IMG/VR virus record: IMGVR_UViG_3300043446_000899
Span: 9,159-73,158 of that record
Length of the DNA stretch: 64,000 nt
Strand: one strand, 5' to 3'
DNA from: a virus
Shown: positions 1 to 59,685 of the stretch, one piece after another
Numbering within the stretch: the stretch's first letter is position 1
Layout of the letters: each line of letters opens with the position of its first letter
Translations under genes and position numbers: made by a program
Notes under the pieces: generated by a model
The model's input: the letters and a program-made list of their open reading frames with translations, nothing else
Told to the model about the DNA's origin: nothing
The model's database searches: none

Positions 1-3000
1 ACCATCTTTTGGTTTAGCTGGTAGCTTACCATTTTGAATGTAGTCAATTAACTCTTCAGCTAATTGTTCCTCTATTTGTATATCTGTAGCATCAGAGTAT
101 TTAAGCTCCTGACCAGTAGCTCTATCTGTAAAGCTTCCTGCTCTAGATCTAAATTCATCTCTGATGCTATTGCGTTCCTCTGGGCTTGTAAACATTCTGT
201 AAACACCATGGAACACCTCATGATATACCGTACCAGTTTCTGCACCTTCATATACATAGATAGCACCATCTTTGAACATACCAAACATCTCTTGTCCAGC
301 AGCATTTCTAATGATGTTCTTAACTCTATATACAGGAAGATTAGGGAATTTATCTTTTAAGAACTTCTCTACTTTAGGCCAGTTCTCTTTTTCAAATGAT
401 TCTTCTTGATTTTGTAATTTAGTACGGAAAGGAGCATCGTCCTCAGTTTCATTCATTTGTCTTCTCATCAACTCCTCATCACTCTCAGAGATCTTGTTCT
501 CTTCAATAATAGGAGCTACAGCCTTAGCCTCCTCTTTAACTGCAGCTTGCTCGTTTCTAATCTTCTGAGCAATAGATGCAGCAATCTTACCAGCTTCCAC
601 TTTAGCAAAAGCAGCAGCGTTATCTGCAGCCATCTTAATAGACTCTGGATTAGTTGGGTCAGTTGTAACAAATTCAATCTCATCTAAATTATTGAAGTTA
701 GGGATAAAGTGAACTGTACCAAAAGTAGGATTACTGATTGTAGTTAACTTACCATCTTCAATAGCATTAGCAACATCAGCTTTAGGAGAACCTGGAGTTA
801 ATGTTTTAGGAGCTTTTACCTTTGGAAGAGGAGTAGCATATCTGTCAGCCATATCTGTAGCTACAAAGTATACACCTTGTCTGTTAACTTCATCTTCATT
901 AGATACAGCTTTGATGTTAGTAGTCAAAGGAATATCTTCACTGTTTCTTCCTTCAGAAGATAACAAGTATGATTGATAGTTCTTCCATTGTTTAGATTCT
1001 ATCTTACCATCTTTTACACCAAGGATTTGTTCGTAAGGCAATGTCCAGTTTTCAACACTGTTAGTTTTTAATTCACTAGATACAGATGCTGATCTAACAT
1101 TATGATACATGTTCTGTAGGTTAGCAATGATTTCTGTCCTAGCAGCTTCTATACCAGCTTGTGTGAATGTGTATGTTTTACCTTCATTACCCATGTGTAA
1201 CTTACCTTTCTCAAACCACACACTATTTACACCAGGAGCATTGTAAGGTTTACCCCAATATACAGTACTTCTCAACCAGTTAACTAATCTCTTAGCATTG
1301 TCTGATTGTAAATTAAATTCACTGTTTGCAATCTTTGCAAGTTCTAATACTGCATCGTAAATTACAGCAGCCTGCTTCTCGCTATGTTTGTTGTTCTGTA
1401 ACATAACATAACCGTTAGCAGCTTTTAAGAATATCTTACCTAATGGATTTGTATAAGAAGTAGAACCTCTTGTAATTGCACCATCAGTTGTAGGAACATA
1501 TAATACAGCCTTTGTATTTAAATCAGAAGGCTTAATTAAATCAGCACTTGTTACAGCAGTTTTGCTGTTAGCTACAGTTTCAGCTTTACCAAAAGAAGCT
1601 TCTATCGTATGAGGAATTAAGCTAGTCTCAGATAGAGTTTCGTTAACCCATGCTGTATACTTAGCAATAATATCTTCTTTTACCTCTTCTGGAGTACCTT
1701 CTCTGAACATACTCTTTCCACCATACTTCTCACTCACCTTGAACTTAGGATCAGGCATCACTTGATACACAGCATCTTCTACTGTAGGTTTAGCAAGTGG
1801 TTTACCGTCTTTACCAATAACAGTTAGTTTATCCCCTATTTGTTCCACCATTACAAATGCAATAGTCTTAGCAGGATCTACATCACTGTCACCTTTTAAA
1901 TAAACCATTAATCCAGATAAACCTAATTGAGCCTCATTAGCTTGTGTAACATATACACCACGGATGTTCTTTCTGTTAGGGAAGCTGTTTAACTTAACTC
2001 CAAAGAAGTTAGAGTTTCTGTATCCAGGGATTTGTTGAGATGCAACAGTTGCTCTAGGAAGAACATCTGTTGGTTTAGTTGCACTAGGAGCAGTAGCTTG
2101 TTCTGTACCTCCCACTTCACTACCTATATCTAAAGTATCATTTAACTCTTTAGCAAGTTTATTGTCTTTAGCAATCTTTTCAGCTTGCTTCATGAATGCT
2201 TCAGACTCAGTTTTAAACGCTGCCTCAATTTCATCAATCAATTCAGGATTATCCTGCTCATTGATATGTTGTAATAATGTTTTTTCAGCATCTTCTCCAG
2301 CAGGCATTGTATCAGCTACATCTTTATACTTAGGTTGACTAACAACTCTAGTAATTACATTATCCAATAAGTTAGCCAATTCATCAGATGTATTATCTAC
2401 GTCACTAACTTTATAAGCTTTAAATTGCTCAGGAGTCAAGAAGCTAGTTCTTCCGTTAGGAAGTTTCACCTCATACTCTCCACCAAGAGTTTGTGCTTGA
2501 ACTGTTATCTTAGGGGCTAATACTAAACCATTACCATCTCTGATATAAGATTGGTCTAAAGAATACTCTTGACCTACGGTCAATTCTTTCTTCTTAGTCT
2601 TACCATCTTCAACTTGTTGTACTTCAACTGGAGCTTCTTCTTCATCAGCCAATTGTGTTCTAACCTGATACTTTTCAGGGTTAGCTTTAATATCATCATA
2701 TTGATCAATGAATAACTTTCTACGTAAAGAAAGTTCAATAGTATCAGTTAATGCTAACTTAAGGTCATCCTTCACTTCAGAAGTTACATCCATGTTATTG
2801 ATTTGCTCAATAGCAGCTTCTGTTGCTTCTTTGTTAGGTTTCTTGTTTGTAATAATATCTGTTAATATAGTAGTGGTATCAATACCAGCTTCTGCTAATG
2901 GAGCATTCACTTGAGGGATACGTGTATCATAGTTCATGATTTTAGCACCAGCGTATACCATCTTATCAAGTACTTGAGTGGAATACTTTCTGTTACCTTT

Positions 3001-4938
3001 ATCATCAATCTCACCAGAGTATCTTAAATCAAGAGACTTGTATAACTCTTCTACTTGTCCAGCTACCTTCTCAAAGTTATTAAGTCTTTGTAAGTAGGTT
3101 TCAACAGTATCGTTAATGTTAGCAAGTCCTTGTTCTTTAAGTTGACTTAATCCACCTTCTGTCATGCCATCTCTTTTCAACTCTTTGATGTCATCAGAAA
3201 TCATATCAAATCTACCATACTTGATACGTGGGGCTAAGTAGTTATGTAATAAATCTGCTTCAAGATCTTTAGCTTCTAATCTATCACCTTGAAGAATAGC
3301 GGCTTGTTGTTGCTGTTGCAACATTACACCTCTATTAATGCCATCCATTCTATCTTGGAAGGCTTGTTTAAATGATGGTGTGCTATTAAGTGTATTAACA
3401 AATGCTTGGGTATTTTCAGCAACAGCTCTGTTTTGAGCAATGTTACCACGAATCTGCATCATTCCTCCAGTGATACCACCAAGTAAAAGGCTTTCCATAC
3501 CTTCTTTAGAATTCAAGACACCTACACCTTTACCTTCTTTGTTGGTACCATTTAAACCATATAAGAATCCATCTACCCAAACATTAGCATTGTTTGTTTG
3601 GAATGCTTTGTTATAGTAGTTCTGAACACCAACTTGTAAGCCAGTTTGTAAACCTTCTTGCAATGCCTCTTTAGGATCAAATGCATATCTAGCTACACCT
3701 TTAGCTTTGTCATAAATTTTAGCAAACTTAGTTGCAGCTTCTTCAGCTACATATTTACCATCTCTTAATACAACATTATCAATTTGTCCCATTAAGCTAT
3801 TAGCAGCCTGCTTACTAGCAGAATAAGAAGATCCTAATATCTTAGGAAGTTGTACATATTCTGTAGCACTCAAGATAGCCATGTTACCAAAGAATGAAGT
3901 TTTACCTACAGTCTCAGCTTCTTTGTTAATTTGATCTAAGTCTTCACCAGTAGGCTCAACACCATTAGCTTCTACATACTGAGCAATTGCATTCTTTCTA
4001 TATTCTCTACTTGTTTGTAATGCTTCAAAAGATGCTTCACCTGCAGAAGAATATGCAGCAATAGCTGTTCTTCTACCAATGTCATTAATCTTAAATAATG
4101 TATTTGTTTGAGATGCAATCTCAGCTAACTCAGAAGACTGAGCAGCAATATCTGCAACAGATGCAATACCTTTCTCCAATACAGCAGCAGCCTCAATGTT
4201 TTTACCAACACTGAAAGCTCTTGACATATTCTTTAATAAAGGAGTGAAAGTTTTAAATGACTGAGAAGCTTCAGCTCCTACAGCATATGCATCAGCTAAT
4301 GCACCAAGAGCACGTCCTGCTTTTAAAATACCAGCATTAGCAATATTACCACTAATCATTGCACCTACAGCATACCCACTGTTCTTTACCAACTTATCAA
4401 ATAAGAAGTTTGGTCTGAACCAGTTGTCTGTAGAATACCAGTTAGCTGTTGTTTCTTTTGTACTATAATAGTTAGGTAGATACTCTTGGTCTACTTTATT
4501 GTTCCAATCATCTAATCCTCTTAAAATACTGTTATCCCAAATGTCAGCAAGTCTTCCAGAGAAGGTTGCTTCTAATGCACCTTCTAACATACCAAAGCCA
4601 CCAATAGTTGTAGTGGCAGCTAAGTTTAATCCTTTCAAGATACCATTGGCAGCTTGAGTTCCCCAAGATTGAGCATTAGCTTTTTGATTCTCAATATCTG
4701 TAATGTCAGGACTGAATATAGCATAACGTCTATTGTCATATAGTTCCTGACTAGTAACTGTAGGAGCCATATCATTTACAATAGGACCTTTACCAAAGAA
4801 ACTATCTACAGCACTTTGGCCACTACCCAAACTTTGCTGATACCCAAATCTTCCAGTAGAAGCTGGGTTATCCAAATTAGGAAGCGTTGAACTTTCGTTC
4901 TTTAGAATAGGTTTGAGGTTTTGATCAAAATCTGGCAT
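1..4938 (-). CDS. giant virion/internal protein (>1645 aa), C-terminal part runs past window start; HEVFH zincin-like motif at ~208-222
   Basis: Minus-strand ATG at complement of 4936-4938 (MPDFDQNLKPILKNESSTLPNLD...). Uninterrupted frame to position 1. Absent from the ORF track, consistent with having no in-window stop. Translation of 181-300 gives ...GAIYVYEGAETGTVYHEVFHGVYRMFTSP. Confidence 0.65.
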   Translation of the reverse strand, partial: MPDFDQNLKPILKNESSTLPNLDNPASTGRFGYQQSLGSGQSAVDSFFGKGPIVNDMAPTVTSQELYDNRRYAIFSPDITDIENQKANAQSWGTQAANGILKGLNLAATTTIGGFGMLEGALEATFSGRLADIWDNSILRGLDDWNNKVDQEYLPNYYSTKETTANWYSTDNWFRPNFLFDKLVKNSGYAVGAMISGNIANAGILKAGRALGALADAYAVGAEASQSFKTFTPLLKNMSRAFSVGKNIEAAAVLEKGIASVADIAAQSSELAEIASQTNTLFKINDIGRRTAIAAYSSAGEASFEALQTSREYRKNAIAQYVEANGVEPTGEDLDQINKEAETVGKTSFFGNMAILSATEYVQLPKILGSSYSASKQAANSLMGQIDNVVLRDGKYVAEEAATKFAKIYDKAKGVARYAFDPKEALQEGLQTGLQVGVQNYYNKAFQTNNANVWVDGFLYGLNGTNKEGKGVGVLNSKEGMESLLLGGITGGMMQIRGNIAQNRAVAENTQAFVNTLNSTPSFKQAFQDRMDGINRGVMLQQQQQAAILQGDRLEAKDLEADLLHNYLAPRIKYGRFDMISDDIKELKRDGMTEGGLSQLKEQGLANINDTVETYLQRLNNFEKVAGQVEELYKSLDLRYSGEIDDKGNRKYSTQVLDKMVYAGAKIMNYDTRIPQVNAPLAEAGIDTTTILTDIITNKKPNKEATEAAIEQINNMDVTSEVKDDLKLALTDTIELSLRRKLFIDQYDDIKANPEKYQVRTQLADEEEAPVEVQQVEDGKTKKKELTVGQEYSLDQSYIRDGNGLVLAPKITVQAQTLGGEYEVKLPNGRTSFLTPEQFKAYKVSDVDNTSDELANLLDNVITRVVSQPKYKDVADTMPAGEDAEKTLLQHINEQDNPELIDEIEAAFKTESEAFMKQAEKIAKDNKLAKELNDTLDIGSEVGGTEQATAPSATKPTDVLPRATVASQQIPGYRNSNFFGVKLNSFPNRKNIRGVYVTQANEAQLGLSGLMVYLKGDSDVDPAKTIAFVMVEQIGDKLTVIGKDGKPLAKPTVEDAVYQVMPDPKFKVSEKYGGKSMFREGTPEEVKEDIIAKYTAWVNETLSETSLIPHTIEASFGKAETVANSKTAVTSADLIKPSDLNTKAVLYVPTTDGAITRGSTSYTNPLGKIFLKAANGYVMLQNNKHSEKQAAVIYDAVLELAKIANSEFNLQSDNAKRLVNWLRSTVYWGKPYNAPGVNSVWFEKGKLHMGNEGKTYTFTQAGIEAARTEIIANLQNMYHNVRSASVSSELKTNSVENWTLPYEQILGVKDGKIESKQWKNYQSYLLSSEGRNSEDIPLTTNIKAVSNEDEVNRQGVYFVATDMADRYATPLPKVKAPKTLTPGSPKADVANAIEDGKLTTISNPTFGTVHFIPNFNNLDEIEFVTTDPTNPESIKMAADNAAAFAKVEAGKIAASIAQKIRNEQAAVKEEAKAVAPIIEENKISESDEELMRRQMNETEDDAPFRTKLQNQEESFEKENWPKVEKFLKDKFPNLPVYRVKNIIRNAAGQEMFGMFKDGAIYVYEGAETGTVYHEVFHGVYRMFTSPEERNSIRDEFRSRAGSFTDRATGQELKYSDATDIQIEEQLAEELIDYIQNGKLPAKPKDG

Positions 4939-4940
4939 AG

Positions 4941-7511
4941 TTATTTTCTGTAGATTTGAGAAAAATCATATTTAGGATAAGACTCTTTTAACAGTTTTAA
5001 TAGTGTGTCATCTGTTAAATTACTTAATTGTTGTTTACCTTGATCATATCCAAGTCTTTGAGATCTGTTTTTTCCAGAGATTTCAAATGTTTGATATGAA
5101 CCATCGTTCTTCATTAAGTGAATCTTTGGTACAAATTGTCCTTTGTACTTAGCATCTTCATCTAACTGAGCTGTTACTTGGAAGCTATGGATATTAGGGA
5201 AGTCACCAAACTGAGTCTGCATAGGTGCAGATTGAGGTTTTCCATTAACATTATTACTACCTCTACCAGCTCTAATTCTTAATGCATCTTGTTTATTAGT
5301 ATTTACATATTGAGCTCCAAATGTTTTGATAGCTTGATCTTGAGTCATGTTTAACACTTGATCATTTTTCATATCAGTAAGGTCTCTAATGATTGCTTGA
5401 TATCCATCAGCAGTTTGACGAAGTAACACTTTAGTATTCTTTAAGTTGTCACCTGTAAGTCTCTTTGCAGCTGTTTCAGTACTGTAGTTCTCATCAGCAG
5501 CAATTTCTTTAGCATCAGCAGCTCCAATAAATGCAACTAAGTTATTAGCAATGTTTGTTGGTACCATATGGTCCTTACCAAAACCTATACCTGTAATTGT
5601 TGGAACTAATTCAGCAACTCTAGAACCTAGCTTTTGTCTGAATAGATCATCTGTTTTCTTTGCAATATCTTTTTCCACACTACCATACTTAGTATAATAA
5701 CTATGTGCTTTTTCAATCAACTTTGCAAACTCAGGATTTGATCCATATCCTGACTTTTTAAATTCTACTTGACGTCCATTAATATTTAATCTATATTCAC
5801 CAAGAGGAGCTTTATCAATACTGTATGTAATAGTACCATTTCTAACACCATCCATAAATGATTTCTCATCTAAAGCTATTGGTAAACCATCGTATGTTCT
5901 AGAGGATACTCTCTTACGTGGATCAAAGTTAGCTTGTATATAAGCTTCTCCTTGTGCTCTCTTAGCAGCAAGACCATGATCTTTTAAAACCTCAGCAGTT
6001 GCTTCAGCTCTTGTAGACTCTTTTAAGTTCTTTAAATCATTGAAATATTGTTGTTGCTTTAAGATGTCTTGGATAGTTCCAATTGCTGTAGCAGGAACAT
6101 TAGCTTTATTACCATTCTTAGCATAGTCAGCAACCATACCATTAACTTGAGCATCTGTAAAACCTTGGTTCATCAAAGATTGCTTATCTCCTATGATAGT
6201 CTTTGCAACATTAGACATGTGACCATCTAATCTCTCAGGAGACTTTAATGTATTATCAGTTGCATTACCTTCTTCTACAGGAATACCTGGAGTACCAAAA
6301 GCAGCTTGCATATCAAGTTCTAATTGTTTTTCATCAACTATCACCTTTCTTTCTTGTAAAGCAAGACTTTTTTCTCCTTGAATTCTTTGTCTATTTTCAG
6401 ATGCCCACTTAAGATCCATTTCTTTAATCCAGTTTTCCTGAGTCTTGAATGGATTTGTTTGGTAGCTATAGTCTTCATTTCTCCACTTGAAACCATTACC
6501 AAACTGTTGGAAGAAACCTTGTGTATACAATGCTTCCTTCACCTTATTTGGGTTGGTTCTAACCATCTCTAAGTTAGCTTTAGCTTGTGCATCTAATGTG
6601 CCAGGTTGACCATCAACACCTAATCTAGTTTCGTAATACTTAATTCTCTTCTCAAGTTGTGAAGTTAACACTGGATCTTGTACTTGAGTGGTTAATTGCT
6701 CTTTTAAGTTGGCAAGCTCAATTGCATCATTCTTTTTAGTTTCAGCTAAGTCAGTGTTGATGATAAAATTTAATTTATCTTCAGACACATCTCTAAACTT
6801 AGATCTACCATCAATAGCTAATTGGTTATAAGCTTCTGCAGATAACCCAGCTCTCAAGGCTGTTTCAATCTGACCTTCTGTAACACCTTCAATTTTATTA
6901 CGTTTCATTGCATCCCCAATAGCTTTACTATTAATCTTACCATCTTGTATTAAAAATGGAATATCAATAGATCTTAGTTCAGGATGCAAGTTCTTTATAA
7001 TCTCCAAAGCTTCTTTACTAACATCTCTATATTGAGAATAGCTAGCTTGTAGCTTTGCTCCAGGTGTTTTACTCTCTATCCAAGGTTTAGCTTGTGCATA
7101 GAAATCTTCTATATTGTTTGCACCTGCTTTACCATCAGTTTGGTCTTTTTCAATTCTAGATAGAATCTTTCTAAACTGTGCTGTTTGAGCAAGAGCGTTT
7201 TGGACATTAGGGTCTTTAACAATTTGAGTTGCCATACCCCCTACAGAGTTAACTAATTGCTGATTAGAGAAATCTCCAGCAGCAACCATTTTAAGATTAT
7301 CTCCTAGACCATCAAGCTTAGACTGTAAGTATGCTTTATCTCCTTCATTGTATACATCCATTCCAGCTATGTTATCCATATAGGACTGGATCTTTTGCAC
7401 ACCAGCGTCATACTGAGCCTGTTTGTACATGCCCACTTTCACCATTGCGTCTGTAGGCAATTGTGCTATATAAGGATTAAATTTTGATATTTGGTCTGTA
7501 AATGAAGCCAT
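4941..7511 (-). CDS. large virion-associated protein (856 aa), function unknown
   Basis: Long ORF in the structural arm, tightly spaced with its neighbours. No motif recognised. Confidence 0.6.
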   Translation of the reverse strand: MASFTDQISKFNPYIAQLPTDAMVKVGMYKQAQYDAGVQKIQSYMDNIAGMDVYNEGDKAYLQSKLDGLGDNLKMVAAGDFSNQQLVNSVGGMATQIVKDPNVQNALAQTAQFRKILSRIEKDQTDGKAGANNIEDFYAQAKPWIESKTPGAKLQASYSQYRDVSKEALEIIKNLHPELRSIDIPFLIQDGKINSKAIGDAMKRNKIEGVTEGQIETALRAGLSAEAYNQLAIDGRSKFRDVSEDKLNFIINTDLAETKKNDAIELANLKEQLTTQVQDPVLTSQLEKRIKYYETRLGVDGQPGTLDAQAKANLEMVRTNPNKVKEALYTQGFFQQFGNGFKWRNEDYSYQTNPFKTQENWIKEMDLKWASENRQRIQGEKSLALQERKVIVDEKQLELDMQAAFGTPGIPVEEGNATDNTLKSPERLDGHMSNVAKTIIGDKQSLMNQGFTDAQVNGMVADYAKNGNKANVPATAIGTIQDILKQQQYFNDLKNLKESTRAEATAEVLKDHGLAAKRAQGEAYIQANFDPRKRVSSRTYDGLPIALDEKSFMDGVRNGTITYSIDKAPLGEYRLNINGRQVEFKKSGYGSNPEFAKLIEKAHSYYTKYGSVEKDIAKKTDDLFRQKLGSRVAELVPTITGIGFGKDHMVPTNIANNLVAFIGAADAKEIAADENYSTETAAKRLTGDNLKNTKVLLRQTADGYQAIIRDLTDMKNDQVLNMTQDQAIKTFGAQYVNTNKQDALRIRAGRGSNNVNGKPQSAPMQTQFGDFPNIHSFQVTAQLDEDAKYKGQFVPKIHLMKNDGSYQTFEISGKNRSQRLGYDQGKQQLSNLTDDTLLKLLKESYPKYDFSQIYRK

Positions 7512-7597
7512 GATATAAGAATTAGCAAATGTAATTTAAATTATTATAAATACCAAGAGTTTTAACTGTTTTGATTAACTTGGTATAACTGAATTGA

Positions 7598-10500
7598 TTA
7601 GATGTTTTTAAGAGCTTTTACAATAGCACCGTTTCTTTTTTCTTCCTTTCCTTCATTCTTAAACTTCTTTTCATAAGCATTAGTAATTGCCTTTGCTTTT
7701 TCATATTCAGACATGTTACCTAATGAGTTGGCACCTACCGTAGGATTGTTAAAGAAGTAAGGATTGTTTGCATTGTAAACAGTACCTGCCTCATTGAATC
7801 TGTATCCATATAAGTTCTCCATAACATTCAAGTTTCTGTTCTCAAGCTTGTTCTGTGCAATCTTGCTAGCAATAGAACCAAGAGCTTCAATAGCTTGTTC
7901 TTTAGTCTTAGACTTAGCTGTTGCTTGTCTAACTTGTTGAGTATCAAGGATTCCTATGTTCTTTAATACAGCATCATTAATTGCCGCTCTATTAGCTTGA
8001 TAAACTTGAGCTTTATTAGCTTGGTTGATTCTCATTTGCTCACCCAACACTTTGTTCTTAAGATCAGCAGCTTGACTCATAATGTAAGCTTGAGAAGCAG
8101 GGTCATTACCAGCAGCTCTAATAGCAGCTCTAGATTGAGAGTCAATAGCATTTACTTGATCTTGTAATGAAATGTCATAAGGATTATCCAACATTGGCTG
8201 ATATGTTTGAGCATATACAGGCTCTTGTTGGTTACTACCTAATGCATACATCTCACCCATAAGTTGATTTGGATCTAATGTAGACTTAGTGTGAGGTCTG
8301 AAATAATCACCTAATCCAGAAGCCAATGTTAAAGCAGCTGTATTCCAATCAAACTTACCTTTACCTTTTTTACCTTTAGGTCCTTTGATATCACCTGGCA
8401 TATCTTCAATGCTAGGAGGATGATCAACAGTTTTTCTCTTTGCAGAAACTGTAACATCTGGTAATGAGTTACCTGTATAACCTGGGCTATATGGAACAAT
8501 GTTATTGTTAGTAGCATTATTTGGATTTAAGAAAGGAGCTTTTTTAAGGAAGTCTAATACTCCAGAAGCAGGTGCAGGGGCATAAGGGATAGTAACATTA
8601 TTGTTAACTCCACCCTTACTAAAATTAGAATATGCATTATATAGAGCACTATTTTGTTTAGCACTTCCTACATAGTCTTTAGCTTTCTTAACGATTCCTA
8701 AACTTTCTGCAAGAGCAGCTCTTGATGACTTATCTGTCTTTTGGTTATTCTTTGCTAGTAAATCTACAATAGATCCACTCTGAGCTTTTGACAACTTCTT
8801 ACCATCTCTACCAATTAATGGGTCTTTGATAGGCTTGATTTGTCCTTTGGATAAACCATCACTCTCTACACCAAACTCATTGGCTGTATCAAGGATTGCA
8901 TTCTGTACCATTGCAGCTGCTTGCTTCTTACCAGCAATATCTTTTAATTTCATATTAGCTCCTAATAGGTTAGCACGGCTAGCATTCATTGCTAATTGAT
9001 CAAATGGATTGTCACTATCAATGCTATTAACCGTTTTAATTGATTTGTCTATAATTCTATTTTGTTTAGCCTCCACCTTGCTAAGATCTGCAATGTAGTG
9101 TTTAAACTTCTTACCTTTAGCTTTGTCATCACCAATCTCTTTAACACCATAGTCAGGAATCATCATGTTACCAAATACTACCAAGTTTCCATCTGGAGAA
9201 CCACCATCTGCTAATTTAACAGCTGGTTCACCACCTTCTACCTCTACACCATTCTCACCATAGCTAATTGGCATACCACCATTGTCATGAGAAGGACCTC
9301 TGAACATTACAGTTTCACCACCTTCTGGTAAGTATGGATTATAAGACATTGTTTCAGCTTTGCCACGGTGAACTTTTAAATCACCACCCATAGCAAATTG
9401 TTCTCTTCCTGTGTACATAGCCTCTGCACTAGGAGGAGTGTATTCTTTTAAATGACCACCAGCACGTAACATATCTGCATCATGAGGAGGCTGCAATAAG
9501 TCTTTTAACTTATGTTCACCAAATGTAGCAATCACCTGTGGCTGCCAATCATTACTTACCCATCCACCATCTTCCATATTGCTAGAATATGTAGAATGTA
9601 TATTCTGAGCACCTTGTGCCCAAGCAGCTCTTTCTGTATTCTTCTTTGTTGTATCTTGGAAACCTGCAAGCTTATTAGCATCATCAGCACCACCTAATAG
9701 GTTACCAGCAACACCACCTAAGAATCCACCAATAGTACTACCTAATGGACCAAATGCACTACCAATTGCAGAACCTACACCTTTACCAATAGATGCTTGA
9801 CCTGAATCTTGAAAGTAATCACCAAACTCAGCTGTAGGTAAGTTACCACCGTAAGCATATTGTTTAACATCACCATTGCTTAATGGTGTATATCCAAGGT
9901 TTGAATATATATCTAAAGGGCTATTATATGAATTCTGAATTTCTGTTTTATTACCTCCAACAGTTGTACCATTCTGAGCAAGGTAGTTTGTACCTCCACC
10001 TTGAGGATTACCTAACTGTCCTGGTTGTACCAACGTATCTTCTGGTCTTACGTATCTATTTTTTTGTAATTGAGGTTGTGACTCAGCAGCCTGTGCAGTA
10101 AGTCCTGATATCTGAGCAGATTGATCTGCTTTCTTAATAGCTGCTTTTTGTTCTTTGATTTGACCAATACCTTGTAAGATTTGAGGAGCAGCATTTAAAA
10201 CTCCTAAACCTGCAGCTTTGCCAGCAGCACCTAATCCTTCAGATGTACCTAAAGTTTTTAATCCTCCAACAAGACCCTTACCTTTAAACATATTTTGACT
10301 AGCATCCATGATACCTTTAGACGTACCTTTTCCACCAAACATGTCAGCAAGTCCACTACCAAGACCACCTTGTTTTTGAAAACCTGTTCCAATAACATTA
10401 CCTAGTTTTGTAAAATCAAAACCATTCTGAGCCATTGGTAAACTATAACCATATTCACCTGTATCACCTTCAGTAAAATGAGTAGCAACTTCAGATAACA

Positions 10501-10876
10501 TATTTCCAAAACCACCATCATCTTGTTTAGCAGGAGCAGCATTAGCAGCAAGAGCTTGTGTGTCTTGTTGTTTCTGATACTGTTCTTTAGTAATACCCAT
10601 GTTGTTAGCAGAAGCACCTGCCATTAGATCATTGAATGCCATAGGTTTAGCATTAGGAGCTGAACTACCACCTCCAATCATTGTACCTACTTGTGCTTTT
10701 GGTTCGCCACTAAAATCAGTTAACTGATCTAATTGTTCAGCCACCATAGCTTTTCCCATAGCAGCTTTCTTGAATGCTTTACCATGAGCCTTCATAAATG
10801 CTTCTTCTGTAGGATACTTCTTGTAGAATTCCTTTTCAGATTTAACTTTAGCGATCTTTAAGAGTTGATCTTTCAT
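7598..10876 (-). CDS. Gly-rich large virion protein (1092 aa), candidate internal/ejection or tail protein
   Basis: Long ORF. Low-complexity G/A/K-rich stretches (GGLGSGLADMFGGKG...). Sits in the structural arm. Confidence 0.6.
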   Translation of the reverse strand: MKDQLLKIAKVKSEKEFYKKYPTEEAFMKAHGKAFKKAAMGKAMVAEQLDQLTDFSGEPKAQVGTMIGGGSSAPNAKPMAFNDLMAGASANNMGITKEQYQKQQDTQALAANAAPAKQDDGGFGNMLSEVATHFTEGDTGEYGYSLPMAQNGFDFTKLGNVIGTGFQKQGGLGSGLADMFGGKGTSKGIMDASQNMFKGKGLVGGLKTLGTSEGLGAAGKAAGLGVLNAAPQILQGIGQIKEQKAAIKKADQSAQISGLTAQAAESQPQLQKNRYVRPEDTLVQPGQLGNPQGGGTNYLAQNGTTVGGNKTEIQNSYNSPLDIYSNLGYTPLSNGDVKQYAYGGNLPTAEFGDYFQDSGQASIGKGVGSAIGSAFGPLGSTIGGFLGGVAGNLLGGADDANKLAGFQDTTKKNTERAAWAQGAQNIHSTYSSNMEDGGWVSNDWQPQVIATFGEHKLKDLLQPPHDADMLRAGGHLKEYTPPSAEAMYTGREQFAMGGDLKVHRGKAETMSYNPYLPEGGETVMFRGPSHDNGGMPISYGENGVEVEGGEPAVKLADGGSPDGNLVVFGNMMIPDYGVKEIGDDKAKGKKFKHYIADLSKVEAKQNRIIDKSIKTVNSIDSDNPFDQLAMNASRANLLGANMKLKDIAGKKQAAAMVQNAILDTANEFGVESDGLSKGQIKPIKDPLIGRDGKKLSKAQSGSIVDLLAKNNQKTDKSSRAALAESLGIVKKAKDYVGSAKQNSALYNAYSNFSKGGVNNNVTIPYAPAPASGVLDFLKKAPFLNPNNATNNNIVPYSPGYTGNSLPDVTVSAKRKTVDHPPSIEDMPGDIKGPKGKKGKGKFDWNTAALTLASGLGDYFRPHTKSTLDPNQLMGEMYALGSNQQEPVYAQTYQPMLDNPYDISLQDQVNAIDSQSRAAIRAAGNDPASQAYIMSQAADLKNKVLGEQMRINQANKAQVYQANRAAINDAVLKNIGILDTQQVRQATAKSKTKEQAIEALGSIASKIAQNKLENRNLNVMENLYGYRFNEAGTVYNANNPYFFNNPTVGANSLGNMSEYEKAKAITNAYEKKFKNEGKEEKRNGAIVKALKNI

Positions 10877-10894
10877 ATTAATCTATTGTATGAT

Positions 10895-13594
10895 TTATTT
10901 ATATTTATTTAACCAGCCACCGTTTTCTTGTTGTCTAATGTGACCAGCAGCTCTTCTTTCAGAAAGATGTTCTAGAATGTCTCTTAATTGATCTCTGTTA
11001 AGTTCATTTAAACGAATTCTATCTCTATGCCCTGTAATTGTTTCCATAACATCTCTATCAGGAATAATTCCATGATCTTGAACTTGATTACGAATGATAT
11101 AAGCCATATCAGTTCTATCTTGATTAGCTCTACGTGCCTCCTGTTCTCTATGTCTTTCTAATAACTGTTTACTATTTGTACGTTCTACTGATTGGATTTC
11201 GTTATCTCTTATATCTCTAAGATAATTTTCTTCAAACAGTCTATCTTCTCCTTCTAACTCTTGATCTAAATTATTTAAATTACGTTCATAGTCAGCATGT
11301 ATACTATTTATTCTTTCTTTCTTTAATTTGTTAGCAGCTTTTATATCACTAGGATTAAATTTAGAAAGTGCTTCTAATCCACTCTCTTCATTGAATGCCT
11401 TTAAACCTTTTTTACCAGCCTCTTTTAACATTCCTGTCACCCTAGCATTTGGATTCTTAATAGATATAGCTGTAGGAGTTTCATAGAATCCTGGAAAAAA
11501 TCTATCACCTGTAACATTAGACATTGGGAAATTTAAACCTGTAGCACTATTTAATCTTTCAATAGGTCTATCCATCTCAGGTTTATAGTTTTTAACAAAC
11601 TGATCATAGCTATCTGGTTCTTCCTGTCTAGCATATCTTAACATTTTCATGACAGGATTGTTATCTTCCTCGTATGCAAGCTTTTCTCTAACTAGTCTAT
11701 TTCTTTCTTCAGGAGCAGCATTTTTAATCCTATTCTCCCAATCTAATTGATTGTTCTTAAACTCTAATAGCTCATTACTATATTTTTGTTTTATCTCAGC
11801 AGGAATAGCATCTTCAACACGTTTACCTCTCCAACCAAAGAAGTTAGTAGGTTGCATTTCTCCAGTTCTTACAGGAGTTAAAGTTTTTGCTTCTCTTGTT
11901 GCATTTGTAAAATACAAAGGAGTAGAGTTTATACTCATGTTTAAATCTCCCAACATTGCTCCTGCTGGAGCATTTGCTTTCTCTGCTGCAATTTTAGCAG
12001 CAACTTCTTCAGGAGTCATTTTAAAATATGCATGATGCATCATGTCTCCAGGTAGTTCTTTAGCAGTTGTACCTGAATATATTGCATTTCTTAATCTCTT
12101 ACCTAAAGATGGAATATCTGATGTAGCATTAAATGTTTTCACTCCTTGTTTAACCAATGGAGAAAGTTCTTCACCAATTGCTGTAGCACCTCCAGCTACT
12201 CCATGTACAAAAGGAACAGCTTGTAACAAATCTCCACCAAGTCTTACTCCTGTTGCTAACGAAGGATCTTTTATAAATTCATATCCTGCACTAGGAACAT
12301 CCCCCACTGCATTTATATAACTCATTGGGTTAACTATATTCACAGCATGTTCAAGAGGGTTTAACGCACCCCTATCAAAATGCTCAGGTAATCCTCTTCC
12401 AGCAATAGCATATTGAGCTGCTGTTACAGGATTACTAAGAACTGCCATAGCTTTAGACATAAAAGATCTAGGTGCTTCAGCAGCACTAATCTCTCCTCTA
12501 TTAGCCAAATACTTATTAAGTCTATCTTGTTCTTCAATTTGTGCAACTTCTTTCTGACTTAAATTCTTAGAAGTTGATTTAGTAGTACCAGATTTAACTC
12601 CTGTAGTAATACTTGTTTTAGGATTACTCTCAGTTAATGTAGCAGCAGGTAATCCTCCTCCTTTTTGATATTTATCTGCCCAACCACCTTTTGGATATTC
12701 TGTTACCTTAGTTCCTTCAAATTTATAATCCTTACCAGGTTGCATTAGTTTAGTATCTCCTGTATCAGATATACCAAGTACAGGATAGTCTACACCTTTC
12801 ATTGTAATTTGGTTAGAACCTATTTCTGTTATCTCACCTGGATGAGCCCATTGACCCATGTCATCTTTAATTACAGAACCATTCTTGCTTATAGTTTTAG
12901 GTTTGAAGTCTAATCCATTTTGATAGAATTCCATCTCATGACCATTCTGTGCACTAGCTTTAGTCTTCTTAGTATACTTACCATTAGCAGGAGCAGATCC
13001 AGCTGTACGTGCGTACATGAAGCCTACAGCACCTGGCATACTTCCACCCATTTGTTTTTTCTTAAGAACACCTGTTCCTTTCTTATATCCATTATCTGCA
13101 TACCATGCAGCTTGTTCATCAGTAGGAAACTTTATAAATTGTCCTGTTTTATTAGCATAGTTCCAAGCAGCATTTTTATCATTCTGATTCAAATACTGGA
13201 GCTTTCCGTTAGGCATTTGTACTACTGTAGGATAAGCTTTACCATCTCCTGATTCCATAAAATGAGTAGATGTACCACGTTGTCCAGGTATTTGTATAGA
13301 ACCTGCACTCTGATCAAAATATCTTTGTACAAAGTTTAAGTCACCTTTTCTAGCATTATGAATACTATCTACCCAAGCTGTTCTATCTGTATTCCACAAA
13401 CTACCACCATCTTGAAACTGTCCACCCCATGCAGGAGAATAGTTTCTACCTGTTGTATCATAACCAGCTCCTACAAAACCAGGGCCCACTGATGCTTGTA
13501 CATCATTGACATTAGCTTTTAAGTCATAGTTATCTTTGGTCTTTTTCTTTAAAACCAAACCCCCTTGTTCGTATTTGTCTAACCACTTAGCCAT
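10895..13594 (-). CDS. large virion protein (899 aa), function unknown
   Basis: Long ORF. Its start overlaps the stop of the downstream gene at 13594. Confidence 0.6.
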   Translation of the reverse strand: MAKWLDKYEQGGLVLKKKTKDNYDLKANVNDVQASVGPGFVGAGYDTTGRNYSPAWGGQFQDGGSLWNTDRTAWVDSIHNARKGDLNFVQRYFDQSAGSIQIPGQRGTSTHFMESGDGKAYPTVVQMPNGKLQYLNQNDKNAAWNYANKTGQFIKFPTDEQAAWYADNGYKKGTGVLKKKQMGGSMPGAVGFMYARTAGSAPANGKYTKKTKASAQNGHEMEFYQNGLDFKPKTISKNGSVIKDDMGQWAHPGEITEIGSNQITMKGVDYPVLGISDTGDTKLMQPGKDYKFEGTKVTEYPKGGWADKYQKGGGLPAATLTESNPKTSITTGVKSGTTKSTSKNLSQKEVAQIEEQDRLNKYLANRGEISAAEAPRSFMSKAMAVLSNPVTAAQYAIAGRGLPEHFDRGALNPLEHAVNIVNPMSYINAVGDVPSAGYEFIKDPSLATGVRLGGDLLQAVPFVHGVAGGATAIGEELSPLVKQGVKTFNATSDIPSLGKRLRNAIYSGTTAKELPGDMMHHAYFKMTPEEVAAKIAAEKANAPAGAMLGDLNMSINSTPLYFTNATREAKTLTPVRTGEMQPTNFFGWRGKRVEDAIPAEIKQKYSNELLEFKNNQLDWENRIKNAAPEERNRLVREKLAYEEDNNPVMKMLRYARQEEPDSYDQFVKNYKPEMDRPIERLNSATGLNFPMSNVTGDRFFPGFYETPTAISIKNPNARVTGMLKEAGKKGLKAFNEESGLEALSKFNPSDIKAANKLKKERINSIHADYERNLNNLDQELEGEDRLFEENYLRDIRDNEIQSVERTNSKQLLERHREQEARRANQDRTDMAYIIRNQVQDHGIIPDRDVMETITGHRDRIRLNELNRDQLRDILEHLSERRAAGHIRQQENGGWLNKYK

Positions 13595-41653: not shown

Positions 41654-41996
41654 ATGTAGTTCTTGGTTTAAGTTGGTTTATTTGCACTATTGTCTTTTCT
41701 AATGTGACAATAGAAGACTTTCTCTTTTGTTCAGACGTATTAACATCATTTATAATACGTTCCATTGCAGCTTTCTTAGCTTGTAGCTTATCTATTTTCT
41801 TTCCAGCCTTCTTTAGGTTGAAGAAGAGCTTTCCAAATCCAGAAATTTCTATGCTGTTATTTAAGTCCATTGCCTCATTGGCAGATTGGAACTGATGATT
41901 TACCACCGTCTCAATTACTTTCTCAGAAACCATCATCTTAACAGCTAGTGTCCTGACTAGGTAATCCTTCACTGACATTGAGATTGGCTTATCCAT
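41643..41996 (-). CDS. hypothetical basic protein (117 aa)
   Basis: Lys-rich ORF. Confidence 0.4.
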   Translation of the reverse strand: MDKPISMSVKDYLVRTLAVKMMVSEKVIETVVNHQFQSANEAMDLNNSIEISGFGKLFFNLKKAGKKIDKLQAKKAAMERIINDVNTSEQKRKSSIVTLEKTIVQINQLKPRTTYED

Positions 41997-42351
41997 GGCT
42001 CACCGTTATTTGTAAGACGATGTCCTTCTCAAAGTCTAGTATGATGACTGGGTTGACCTTCACCTTGGTACCGTCCTTGACAAACACCCCAATCTTCTTT
42101 AGCTTGGAGATGATGTTGTTGATGGTTGGGGGCGAGCTTTTGTACTTCTCACAGAACTCAGCACGAATGTTGGCATAGGAGATGTTACCTTTGATGGCTG
42201 TGAAAGCAATCAACTGCACCTCACGTTCTGTCAATCCAAGACCATTCACAGCTGACAGTATATGATAGTACTTCTCAGCCACAGCGTAGGAATCCCCCAC
42301 TGGTCTCTTCATCTTCTGAACAATTAGCCTCTTGTTTTCTGTTGGTTCCAT
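41989..42351 (-). CDS. hypothetical protein (120 aa) with elevated GC relative to neighbours; first gene of the leftward arm
   Basis: Local GC ~43-45% against ~33% around it. Preceded by the Bacteroidota-type promoter. Confidence 0.45.
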   Translation of the reverse strand: MEPTENKRLIVQKMKRPVGDSYAVAEKYYHILSAVNGLGLTEREVQLIAFTAIKGNISYANIRAEFCEKYKSSPPTINNIISKLKKIGVFVKDGTKVKVNPVIILDFEKDIVLQITVSHG

Positions 42352-42363
42352 AATTAGTTAAAG

Positions 42364-42394
42364 CAAAGGTATGTATATTCCTTTGATTCTCAAA
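42364..42394 (-). promoter_or_regulatory. Bacteroidota-type sigma-A promoter (TTTG-N19-TACCTTTG) for the leftward arm
   Basis: Minus strand reads TTTG agaatcaaaggaatataca TACCTTTG, with the -7 element ending 11 nt before the ATG of the gene at 42351. Confidence 0.4.
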
Positions 42395-42517
42395 TAACTA
42401 TTTTAGTTATCTAGAATAGGAATGCTATATTATGCACTATTTTTATAACCTATATAGTTATAACCCTAAAATTGTACATACTATATAAGCTGTTTAGATA
42501 AGTGGTGATTCTTAGGA

Positions 42518-42536
42518 CCCCCCCTAAATCCCCCCC
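42518..42536. repeat. two C7 homopolymer tracts separated by TAAAT
   Basis: ggaCCCCCCCtaaatCCCCCCCaaag within an otherwise AT-rich control region. Confidence 0.5.
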
Positions 42537-42799
42537 AAAGTTACAAAGACTTTTTTGAAACTACCAAATTTATTTTCTGCAAGGGATTATAATTCCGGTA
42601 CAGCACCATATTATAACATCCCTTATAAGGAACAACTTAAGGCTATGATGGGTCATATAAGTCAAGTTATAGGTTTACTATTTACTGTATATAGTAAAGA
42701 CATAGCTTGACAAACCAGGAAGCAAAAAGCTGCCAAAACAGGAAGTGACTGGAGCCATGGTTCCACGTGGAACAATTTCTAAAATTTTTTTTCCAATGC

Positions 42800-42883
42800 C
42801 TATACCCCCCATGTTGATGGGAGAGGAGGCTACTCCTACCAGATACCCCACCTGTGAATTGAGAAGTTGGGGATACCCCTCCT
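42800..42883 (+). promoter_or_regulatory. three direct repeats (T/G)ATACCCC-NN-(A/C)TG upstream of the first rightward gene (operator/promoter candidates)
   Basis: TATACCCCCCATG (~42800), GATACCCCACCTG (42841), GATACCCCTCCTG (42871). Spacings of 41 and 30 bp. Confidence 0.4.
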
Positions 42884-42956
42884 GATCGTTGACAATACAA
42901 TCAAATTACAATTAAACAAAAAACCTTATGGTGTTTAGGTCAACCAACCAATTATT

Positions 42957-43397
42957 ATGGCTTTACCACAATTCCAAGCTTACCAAAGACAAGCAACCGC
43001 TACTACATTAGTTAATAACGGTACTGTAAGAGACTTAATGACTGAGAAAGGTGCATTAGGTTTGATTCCATCTAACTTAAAGCGTGAGACTAAGTTGAAT
43101 GCTAAGGGCGAAATGGTTTACAATCGTGTCTTAGTGTTAGTGTACAATGGCAAGATTGCTGAAAATGGACAACCTGAGTCTATCAGCATTAGTTGTTCTG
43201 AGTCTGTTAGTAGAGACTTAAGAGCTAAGAACATCACATTATCTGAGTTAGCAGACTATTCCATCTTAGAAGATGAGAATGGAATCAATTACATCAGTAT
43301 GCCAGGAACAGGTGTTGTTAAGTACAATGCTTCTGAATTGAAGACTGTTGCTGTTAGTACAAAAGCAACTAACTATCAAGACTTAATTGCATTGTAA
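42957..43397 (+). CDS. hypothetical protein (146 aa), first rightward gene, followed by a strong terminator
   Basis: ORF followed by the terminator at 43410-43445. Confidence 0.6.
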   Translation: MALPQFQAYQRQATATTLVNNGTVRDLMTEKGALGLIPSNLKRETKLNAKGEMVYNRVLVLVYNGKIAENGQPESISISCSESVSRDLRAKNITLSELADYSILEDENGINYISMPGTGVVKYNASELKTVAVSTKATNYQDLIAL

Positions 43398-43409
43398 TTA
43401 GTTAATTAA

Positions 43410-43445
43410 CAAGGGGATAGAGCAATCTATCTCCTTGTTTTTATA
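43410..43445 (+). terminator. rho-independent terminator
   Basis: AAGGGGATAGAG-caat-CTATCTCCTT followed by GTTTTTAT. Confidence 0.55.
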
Positions 43446-43624
43446 CATAGGGTGGGCATATGATACATATATAGGGTTGGGCTTTTAAAAACACACTGAT
43501 AATCAACACTTTAATGTAAGTGTGAGAATAGGTGTGTGACCATAGATAGGTTATCACAGTAAAAATATACATTCATCAATCATGCTATACAATTAAATAT
43601 ATATAGCATTAAATACACAATCAC

Positions 43625-47337: not shown

Positions 47338-47755
47338 GGGGGTGTATTGGATTTGATCCACATGAGATGGGTAGTATCACATGCAAGCCTTGGAACAGGT
47401 AAACAAGTTCTAAACAATAACCGTAAAGAGTCAATCTGAGCGTGTTGCAGAAGGAGCTAGCATCATTGCTATGGCCTTCGCTTCTGAGGTAGCAGTAGCT
47501 GCCTAAGGCAACTGGGTGGTAACAACCTGGAAACAGAAAGTTACAAGAGTTTTCTCTGTAGTCATATAAACAGAGTGGTGGTAGAAAGCAGACCCTGCGA
47601 TCCCATTACGGTGCAAATACTTGTCTTAACAGACGGATGGAGAAACAGAAGGATAAAAGTTACTAACCACACCCTTCAGTATTAGTACTAAGCATGTAAG
47701 AACGGTATTACGTATACTTGTGGAGACAGGGGTTCAACTCCCCTCACCTCCACCA
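47338..47755 (+). ncRNA. ssrA: tmRNA (ssrA-like), phage-encoded; tag reading frame ~47447-47506 ending ...ASEVAVAA-stop
   Basis: 5' GGGGGUG-UAUU-GGAUUUGAUCC (cf. E. coli GGGGCUG-AUUCU-GGAUUCGAC). 3' GGGGUUCAACUCCCC-U-CACCUCC-ACCA with an encoded CCA. A 7-bp acceptor stem with one G.U pair. ~418 nt ORF-free gap between protein genes. Internal frame GCA GAA GGA ... GUA GCU GCC UAA. Confidence 0.55.
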
Positions 47756-48111: not shown

Positions 48112-48717
48112 GTGAAATATATTTCATATATTTGTAGCATGAATCAATATTTAATATATGGACTTAGATGTCCCAAAACAGATGACTACAAATATATAGG
48201 TAAAAGTAGTTCAGGATTAGAAAGAGCCAAAGCTCATTTAACGTATTCACATAATGAATCAGTGAATCATTGGGTAGCTGAGTTAAGAGAGCAAGGTTTT
48301 TGTCCTTTAATAGATGTACTTGAAGAGTGTTTAGAAGAAGATTTGCAGATAAAAGAGCACTTCTGGATACAATATTATACAGCTAGAGGATGTAAGCTAA
48401 TGAATTCTATATTCTATAGAGGTGCAGCGATAGAAAAACTTGAACAACAAGTTGCTGAAGCTCAGAAAGAATTAGATGCAACATTAAATAAAGTGCTTGA
48501 CACTATTAATGAACTACGCACTATTAATGGCTTTATCAAACATATAAGAAAGACAAGAGGCTTAACACAGCAAGATTTATCAGAGATGGCTGGTATTACA
48601 TCAAGAACATTAACTGATATTGAGCTAGGAAAAGGCAATCCTTCTTATGCTACTATTGAGAAGCTATTAGATATATTGGGATATAAATTAACACCAACAT
48701 TAAAAAACTCAGTATAA
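48112..48717 (+). CDS. GIY-YIG nuclease domain fused to an XRE-type HTH (homing-endonuclease-like or regulator)
   Basis: YLIYGLRCPKTDDYKYIGKSS...RAKAH matches the GIY-x10-YIG-...R...H pattern. C-terminal LTQQDLSEMAGITSRTLTDIELGKGNPSYATIEKLLDILG matches an XRE HTH. Confidence 0.55.
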   Translation: MKYISYICSMNQYLIYGLRCPKTDDYKYIGKSSSGLERAKAHLTYSHNESVNHWVAELREQGFCPLIDVLEECLEEDLQIKEHFWIQYYTARGCKLMNSIFYRGAAIEKLEQQVAEAQKELDATLNKVLDTINELRTINGFIKHIRKTRGLTQQDLSEMAGITSRTLTDIELGKGNPSYATIEKLLDILGYKLTPTLKNSV

Positions 48718-48772
48718 ATACTTAATGATACATTATTGTATTTAAGTAATTTTGTACAAAAACAAATAACCT

Positions 48773-57839: not shown

Positions 57840-58048
57840 TACTAGAATTATTTGAAGAAAGTAGACCTGATACAGGTACAATGTATGTAGTGAGAGCTGA
57901 TGGTTCAAGTCTTAAATGGTTTTCAAGAAAAGAAGACGCAGAGAAGTTTTATGATGAGATTTTAGCTAATCCAAGCGTACTAGAACCTACTAAAATTATT
58001 TTGAAAAGTGATGAAATTAATGTACCTTTGATAGAACAAAACAGTTAA
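57836..58048 (+). CDS. hypothetical protein (70 aa)
   Basis: ORF coupled to the helicase stop. Confidence 0.4.
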   Translation: MILELFEESRPDTGTMYVVRADGSSLKWFSRKEDAEKFYDEILANPSVLEPTKIILKSDEINVPLIEQNS

Positions 58049-59671: not shown

Positions 59672-59685
59672 ATTAAATTTGAATC

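Follow-up and report, generated by a model that had tools for sequence, protein, structure and literature searches.

A conserved single-copy element and host-type promoters at the divergent junction of a Crassvirales-type phage: a candidate hub of transcription control

How does a phage whose genes run in two opposite arms control transcription from the one gap where the arms meet? We examined this question in the IMG/VR virus record IMGVR_UViG_3300043446_000899, of which a stretch of 64,000 nt (positions 9,159 to 73,158 of the record; hereafter the window) was analyzed. Two divergent genes, at 41989-42351 on the minus strand and at 42957-43397 on the plus strand, bound a gap in which no credible open reading frame (ORF) was found, and the original prediction, made from the letters alone, that a divergent control region lies here was borne out. 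The motifs it had listed, a promoter, a set of ATACCCC repeats and a pair of C7 runs, are all present in the sequence and non-random. To these we add a second leftward promoter (P2), a 12-mer, CATAATATAGCA, a GTTCC-N4-GGAAC palindrome, a tandem repeat of CAAAnCnnGGAAGT and a GGGG-loop-CCCC inverted repeat. Our best explanation, with a probability of roughly 0.55, is that the gap serves as the central transcription-control hub of a Crassvirales-type phage of a Bacteroidota host, in which two promoters, P1 and P2, face leftward and a 130-nt element, E, provides the start region for rightward early transcription.

The rightward side is marked by the conserved element E, which lies at the head of the rightward arm and is made up of the following parts.

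42757-42885, plus strand: element E, single-copy, 130 nt, found with nhmmer in 74 of 78 relatives
42760-42773, plus strand: GTTCC-N4-GGAAC palindrome
42782-42793, plus strand: A4T8 tract
42801-42813, plus strand: repeat 1
42817-42836, plus strand: ATGGGAGAGGAGGCTACTCC
42842-42854, plus strand: repeat 2
42859-42879, plus strand: TTGAG..GTTGGGG-ATA-CCCC
42872-42884, plus strand: repeat 3

Comparisons drew on more than 100 related uncultured phage contigs from IMG/VR, with subsets that differ by test. A profile built from positions 42755-42885 and run with nhmmer on 78 relatives found E once, in constant orientation, in 74 of them, the four misses being truncated contigs. E is also single-copy in the window and in 30 contigs that an independent scan by pattern brought up. 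The aligned copies show almost no gaps, and columns C58-61 and C90-92 are near-invariant. The 5' part of E consists of an A/T tract, a run of C or G that varies and takes the place of repeat 1, and T-n-T...ATGGGAGnGGAG-nCTACTCC; its 3' part continues with AACCCC (repeat 2), ATTTGAG-GGTTGGGG, a loop of 3-5 nt and CCCC (repeat 3).

The three ATACCCC repeats had been proposed as operator sites for a phage regulator. Their presence and clustering are clear: ATACCCC occurs four times on both strands of the 64 kb, three of these within 78 nt (starts at 42802, 42843 and 42873, or 42801, 42842 and 42872 with the leading T/G), and the 12-nt form ATACCCC-NN-MTG is matched exactly only at the three sites in the gap. 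What did not hold is the idea of three equivalent operators. Across relatives, repeats 2 and 3 belong to E and are conserved as near-invariant C-runs, reducing to CCCC in most genomes, while repeat 1 is replaced by C2-C7 or G runs. An iteron or operator array of three repeats was rejected because repeat 1 is not conserved; the tandem repeat of Block D, described below, has only two copies.

The gene that follows E is far less constant than E itself. Among 43 relatives, the first ORF starts at a median of 41 nt 3' of E, codes for about 124-147 aa and falls into three families without detectable homology by blastp and hhalign. E is thus kept ahead of three unrelated first-gene families, which makes it independent of the gene that follows and argues against a gene-specific leader. 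The slot after E appears to hold a swappable first early gene. In one relative (L002, positions 2320-3000), E and the 146-aa gene are separated by an inserted 135-aa gene that brings its own terminator, and a remnant, GATACACCACCTGATACCCCTCCTG, comprising repeats 2 and 3 without the G-run, is retained directly upstream of the 146-aa gene. Eight other relatives (L014, L015, L016, L019, L034, L049, L050 and L037) carry an extra conserved block 30-60 nt after E, which is not found in the window: a short hairpin with compensating changes (GTGC..GCAC, CGTG..CACG, GTGG..CCAC), followed by ATTAAACACTGCAA.

E contains no host promoter boxes. Likewise, no TAnnTTTG box was found for the block of small ORFs that extends from 42957 to about 48100; such boxes precede the genes at 48127, 48747, 58023 and 59674. 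A candidate early promoter of the form TATAG..GGG was not recurrent in the window.

Which polymerase might then read the rightward arm? The window derives from a Crassvirales-type phage: its left arm has genes for TerL, portal, major capsid protein and the Crassvirus muzzle protein (PF25731), and its right arm has those for DNA polymerase, helicases and primase. None of the deposited phages is close; the best TerL match among them is to Leptolyngbya phage Lbo-JY46 (41%), followed by Cellulophaga phi4:1 (33%). In the crassvirus phi14:2, the rightward replicative arm is early and transcribed by an injected, rifampicin-resistant virion RNA polymerase (vRNAP), and the leftward arms use the host RNA polymerase (RNAP) from promoters with a tripartite motif, one of them upstream of g110, the first leftward gene (10.1101/2020.03.07.982082). 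In vitro, the templates that the crass vRNAP can use are limited to DNA that is single-stranded or denatured (10.1101/2020.03.07.982082).

A vRNAP gene is present in this phage as well. An ORF at 1-4938 on the minus strand, cut by the left window edge, is the N-terminus of a protein of more than 3600 aa, and a 90%-identical relative (L085) has, in the same giant protein (positions 1915-12900 of that contig), the motif GSDFDIDKL at residue 2973. This is the catalytic motif of the crass vRNAP, and the giant ORF of the window would be the N-terminus of a related polymerase. The DFDxD motif does not occur within the 64-kb window and is seen only in the longer ORF of L085. In L085, the vRNAP looks to be fused into a polypeptide far larger than phi14:2 gp66 (2180 aa). 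No T7-like or single-subunit RNAP was found among the large ORFs of the window. By analogy with phi14:2, E would be the promoter and the first part of the leader for early transcription by the injected polymerase.

On the leftward side, the gap opens with promoter P1, proximal to the first leftward gene.

42364-42371, minus strand: -7 box of P1, TACCTTTG, of the form TAnnTTT(G/A) in 56 of 57 relatives
42391-42394, minus strand: -33 element of P1, TTTG, 19 nt upstream of the -7 box
42394-42410, no strand assigned: palindrome ATAACTAnnnTAGTTAT (ATAAC-N7-GTTAT), overlapping the P1 -33 element; candidate operator
42423-42434, minus strand: invariant 12-mer, with at most one mismatch in 55 of 57 relatives

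The Bacteroidota-type promoter TTTG-N19-TACCTTTG had been noticed in the original prediction, and its boxes and spacer were confirmed; the -7 box and the ATG at 42351 are separated by 12 nt, where the prediction had given 11 nt. When the upstream regions of 57 non-redundant relatives were aligned, the -7 box was kept in 56 and the -33 TTTG, at 19-20 nt, in 42, so that the promoter is real in a comparative sense. The pattern TTTG-N18-21-TAnnTTTG has seven matches in the window against 2.4 expected, two of them inside the gap. In flavobacterial sigma-A promoters (Flavobacterium psychrophilum), the -7 box spans -12 to -5 (PMC9723704), and this rule places the predicted P1 start at about 42359, with a leader of 8 nt. 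P1 and P2 resemble the sigma-A promoters of Bacteroidota in both boxes, in the canonical spacing of 19-21 nt and in lying just upstream of genes (PMC9723704). They differ in being phage-borne, and P1 also in the invariant 12-mer that lies 40-52 nt upstream of it and in its predicted leader, which is very short. On these motifs, the host is probably a member of the Bacteroidota.

The 12-mer has a single exact copy in the window, and its distance to the P1 -7 box falls into two classes, 49-52 or 40-42 nt, one helical turn apart. The palindrome over the -33 element is kept in relatives whose flanking protein is at least about 70% identical. A second ATAAC-N7-GTTAT palindrome, ATAACCTATATAGTTAT, lies at 42445-42461, 51 nt from the first, so that the pair flanks the 12-mer; it is absent in close relatives. 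The phage regulator that had been suggested for the region remains plausible, given the adjoining winged-helix gene and the palindrome across the -33 box. The 12-mer would then be an activator site and the palindrome an operator, together timing the middle/late structural arm. Candidates for binding at these sites are the winged-helix and HU-like proteins, whose genes lie nearby.

Further TAnnTTTG boxes less than 60 nt from ORF starts occur at 7526-7533 (minus strand) and at 48127-48134, 48747-48754, 58023-58030 and 59674-59681 (plus strand). Their sequences suggest host-RNAP promoters for a left-arm cargo-protein gene and for right-arm replication genes from 48.1 kb on.

Farther from the leftward genes lies P2, together with a G-rich block that had been listed as two C7 runs.

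42536-42581, minus strand: P2, second leftward Bacteroidota-type promoter, with an A-rich block AAAATAAA, a -33 element, a 21-nt spacer and a -7 box
42565-42568, minus strand: -33 element of P2, TTTG(G), 21 nt from the -7 box
42536-42543, minus strand: -7 box of P2, TAACTTTG, conserved across the family
42518-42536, minus strand: G7-ATTTA-G7 (C7-TAAAT-C7 on the plus strand), straddling the predicted P2 start at about 42531

Family-wide, P2 takes the form AAAATAAATTTGG-N~20-TAnCTTTG, with G tracts following at once, and it is also present in contigs that were retrieved independently via element E. The C7 tracts of the window occupy 42518-42524 and 42530-42536. If a canonical G-quadruplex motif is taken as four runs of G, each 3 nt or longer, joined by loops of 1-7 nt, the 64 kb contain no other such motif of predicted folding, and the strongest G4Hunter score of the window falls here too (-2.2; next best, -1.56). 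Other lineages have the blocks GGGTGGGTGGG, GGGGTGGAGGGTGGG, GGGGAGTGTGGGTGGGG and GGTGGGTGGGTGGG at the same place, and the G-tract block of every relative belongs to the top 1% of all G4Hunter windows in the locus concerned; four G3 tracts are present in 8 of 41 relatives, and four tracts of G2 or longer in 38 of 41. Relative to the predicted P2 start, G7-ATTTA-G7 spans -5 to +14 and the G-tract overall -5 to +20, and no ORF runs across it. No other host-type box of the window is followed by G tracts.

The view that the C7 runs are slippage-prone switches did not stand up. The lengths are 7/7 in 17 of 18 loci, including lineages with a differing spacer, with a single 8/7 exception (L005), and the runs lie outside the promoter spacer and outside any reading frame, at the P2 start. 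Constant length across diverged lineages and this position point to a selected G-tract element and not to a switch. P2 would be a distal host-type promoter that fires from within the G-tract block.

In many relatives (L013, L026, L029, L030, L036, L041, L048 and L056), P2 precedes and would drive an ORF of about 80 aa, which encodes a membrane protein with a hydrophobic N-terminus between P2 and P1 and has its stop codon in the 12-mer (motif GCATAATATAGCA). The ORF is lost, and the motif kept, in the window and its closest relatives. Middle promoters of phi14:2 match in genomic position, as they precede the gene that opens the leftward arm at the divergent junction and also an IHF-like gene; the one at g110 was mapped, according to the preprint (10.1101/2020.03.07.982082). 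The sequence upstream of g110, with A-tracts, ATTTGG, about 20 nt and TATCTTTG, has the layout of P2, compared here by position and layout; unlike P2, it has no G-tract. P1 and P2 are best read as middle/late promoters of the host RNAP, which would serve the leftward arm from the proximal site, 12 nt from the winged-helix gene, and from the distal one.

P2 and E stand close together. The distance between them is 0-50 nt in many lineages, and compact forms measure 118-121 nt from the P2 -7 box to TTGAG. Since P2 abuts E in so many lineages, the two form the core divergent unit. What separates them in the window are two further blocks.

42582-42700, no strand assigned: Block C, AT-rich palindromes ATTATAAT ... 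ATATTATAA and TCCCTTATAAGGA, in a subset of relatives only
42706-42750, plus strand: Block D, two tandem CAAAnCnnGGAAGT units, 23 nt apart, in at least 25 relatives

Block C is missing where P2 and E stand back-to-back, and the distance from Block D to E varies among relatives. Both blocks are lineage-specific insertions between P2 and E.

The gap is flanked by the following features.

41989-42351, minus strand: first leftward gene (structural/packaging arm), 120 aa, winged-helix protein, candidate regulator
42957-43397, plus strand: first rightward gene, 146 aa, with only 16 close homologues
43410-43445, plus strand: intrinsic terminator, CAAGGGGATAGAGCAATCTATCTCCTTG followed by a T run, 3' of the first rightward gene

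The leftward operon begins with the winged-helix protein and an HU/IHF-like protein and leads further on to TerL. The phage family is abundant in metagenomes: the 120-aa protein has 2264 homologues, some named MarR-family by the Joint Genome Institute, and 137 IMG/VR loci on contigs of 105-117 kb; among deposited phages, it had no tblastn match and the region no DNA match. Its AlphaFold model (predicted local distance difference test, pLDDT, 70) shows four helices and a beta-hairpin wing, and Foldseek returned weak matches only, to Zur/MarR/ArsR regulators and to the N-terminal domain of T4 MotA. This fold makes the protein a candidate regulator. The model of the 146-aa protein (pLDDT 44) was too poor for use, and sequence searches of the PDB with both flanking proteins gave no match. 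A scan for sigma-70 promoters and terminators found no terminator in the gap and was otherwise uninformative. The sole Rfam match in the scanned stretch was a weak CsrC-like one at 43398-43441, overlapping the terminator.

Two side observations concern the rightward arm. Just 3' of the terminator, at 43443-43490 on the plus strand, the next intergenic gap contains two tandem, G-rich copies of ATA(C/T)ATAGGGT(T)GGGC, 24 nt apart. The window also encodes a transfer-messenger RNA at 47338-47755 on the plus strand, with a tag peptide predicted by ARAGORN as ...AMAFASEVAVAA, an RNA end ...CTCACCTCCACCA and a match to Rfam RF00023 of 74 bits, against a gathering threshold of 47.

We know of no promoter for a crassvirus virion RNAP, and both E and the unit of promoter and G-tract appear to be undescribed. 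Two known systems offer a comparison for E. The early promoters of the N4 virion RNAP form a DNA hairpin with a short stem and a 3-nt loop (PMC4496689). E is similar in that a short G/C inverted repeat with a loop of 3-5 nt is found upstream of the leading early gene, in a phage that would inject its own RNAP; it differs in that the polymerases are unrelated, that E has one copy per genome against three in N4, and that the stem in the window is only 4 bp. The GGGG-N3-5-CCCC core is conserved but single-copy, and an extension of the stem has no statistical support. The second comparison is with the junction of promoter and start in T7-type promoters (TATA / GGGAGA), which E resembles in T-n-T...AT followed by GGGAGAGGAGG, the same ATGGGAGAAG being found at the crAss001 junction. 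Unlike T7, the window encodes no single-subunit RNAP, and the relatives at the greatest distance have lost the GGGAG block.

E-like sequences were also found in cultured crassviruses. Phi14:2 has CCCCC-N16-TTGGGG-AGTA-TCCCC some 75 nt upstream of g111, and 3000 shuffles gave no chance match. At the gp2/gp3 junction of crAss001, ATGGGAGAAGTGTGGATTACTAC / TATTTATGGGAGAAGTGTGGATTACTACC lies 57 nt upstream of gp2, and the pattern ATGGGAG-N5-14-TACTNC has its sole match there in 50 kb, against 0.03 expected. A loose C/G/C pattern scan of IMG/VR was unspecific, being swamped by unrelated contigs.

Several observations weigh against the hub as we describe it. All start sites of this phage are predicted, and the study of phi14:2 reported no common motif upstream of early transcripts (10.1101/2020.03.07.982082). 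E is single-copy and a terminator follows the first rightward gene, so one promoter may not serve the whole early block. Phi14:2 and crAss001 each carry half of E, the patterns used for scoring were set after the sequences had been viewed, and the E profile found no significant match in phi14:2 or in Lbo-JY46; the post-hoc patterns, the half elements and the profile miss of phi14:2 leave the resemblance only suggestive. The junction of phi4:1, a closer cultured relative by TerL, has neither E nor a G-tract and shows a rightward host-type box instead; in both Lbo-JY46 and phi4:1, the layout of the junction is different. A few copies of P2 have no G-tract. Finally, the nearest isolate by TerL infects a cyanobacterium, whereas the Bacteroidota host rests on promoter motifs.

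A more specific version of the hub can be advanced only tentatively. According to it, the crassvirus vRNAP itself recognizes E and starts there, the signatures ATGGGAG...TACTNC and CCCC-N16-TTGGGG-loop-CCCC are conserved as far as crAss001 and phi14:2, and the unit of P2 and G-tract marks the genome entry end or an origin.

That the region is, or contains, a replication origin we consider unlikely as the main explanation. Here, transcription from P2 into the G-tract would form an R-loop or hybrid G-quadruplex that primes replication or opens the DNA, the A/T tracts would be the unwinding element, and an initiator would act at the C-runs, at the repeats of Block D and at the palindromes. Promoter-proximal elements of this kind include the human mitochondrial CSB II (conserved sequence block II), of the form G5-6 A G7-8, which G7-ATTTA-G7 resembles, as well as ColE1 RNA II and T4 oriF. 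The window holds its sole G-quadruplex motif at a conserved promoter, the A4T8 tract and the tandem repeats are conserved, and P2 and E make a compact unit of fixed spacing. CSB II is G-rich, lies downstream of a promoter and primes replication through a hybrid G-quadruplex and R-loop (PMC3488243, PMC4176368), and the origin of prototypic crAssphage has been predicted at the start of the forward arm (PMC10983915). The likeness to the mitochondrial light-strand promoter and CSB II is that a promoter reads into a block with a G-rich non-template strand (PMC3488243, PMC4176368, PMC5027508). However, the phage tract, at -5 to +20, overlaps the start site, whereas the mitochondrial block lies well downstream of its promoter, and in many relatives P2 is merely the promoter of the 80-aa gene, its transcript being an ordinary mRNA. 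Only the 8 of 41 relatives mentioned above have four G3 tracts, and no initiator protein was identified. The cumulative GC skew has its minimum at 42-43 kb, but the skew switch coincides exactly with the switch in gene orientation and therefore carries no independent weight.

A packaging role is very unlikely to account for the region. The gap would then be a pac or cos site or the boundary of a direct terminal repeat, with its repeats and palindromes bound by a small terminase-like winged-helix protein and by the HU/IHF-like protein that the next gene downstream encodes, much as lambda cos lies upstream of Nu1. The gene order fits, as the leftward operon opens with such proteins and leads to TerL, and for crAssphage both direct terminal repeats and read ends have been reported in a single region (PMC10983915). 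Of 80 related contigs (L010-L080, L087-L116), about 30 end less than 2.5 kb away on the E side of the 120-aa gene, several of them 10-150 nt from the E inverted repeat. These ends, however, are scattered and share no single position, they fall where close relatives cease to align, which alone is enough to break assemblies, and full-length contigs hold the region internally. The accumulation of contig ends by E is a hot spot of assembly breaks, which could reflect hypervariable early genes or true genome ends. A role as origin or in packaging could coexist with the promoter roles.

It is equally doubtful that E acts as a structured RNA, be it a switch in the 5' leader or a small RNA. Its G-run would then pair with C-run 2 in one state and with C-run 3 in another, and this would account for the likeness of the two repeats. 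Nearly all relatives can form a GGGG-loop-CCCC core, in many of them pairing extends from the 5' flank to the bases 3' of the C-run (TTGAGTG/CACTCAA, GACAAG/CTTGTC, TTAGGG/CCCTAA), repeats 2 and 3 co-vary within genomes, and the mean folding z-score of 49 sequences is -1.5. Against this, the RNAalifold consensus contains no pairs, pairing in a rigid register scored 0.47 against 0.48 for the null, and the arm-swap test gave a mean z of -0.69, with +0.42 for the window itself, whose own fold has a z of -0.5. The gap has no Rfam match at E<=1, and no T run follows the inverted repeat, so that the hairpin has no U-tail and lacks the usual form of a terminator or attenuator. A conserved extended hairpin in E, for which single folds looked promising, was dropped after the covariation test returned the null and the arm-swap test proved weak. 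With the pairing tests at or near the null, only the conserved 4-bp G/C inverted repeat is kept, and we regard E as mainly a sequence-level (DNA) signal.

Least credible of all is that the three ATACCCC repeats are operators of a phage repressor and the C7 runs slippage-prone phase switches. In its favour are the clustering of the repeats, which greatly exceeds chance, the neighbouring winged-helix gene and the C8 tract of one relative. Against it, relatives do not keep repeat 1, repeats 2 and 3 come down to CCCC in most of them, and outside the lineages with near-constant 7/7 tracts, mixed G-tracts are swapped in.

Crassvirales are among the most abundant phages, and the only experimental study of how their injected RNAP finds the early genes reported no motif for early promoters. 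E is single-copy, deeply conserved, not of host type and located exactly where early transcription is expected, and it makes the early promoters of crass phages testable. A host-type promoter paired with a G-quadruplex-type tract at its start site would be an unusual combination for bacteria and phages alike, and the logic of P1 and P2, with the 12-mer, the palindrome and the winged-helix gene, may offer a handle on middle/late switching in phages of Bacteroidota.

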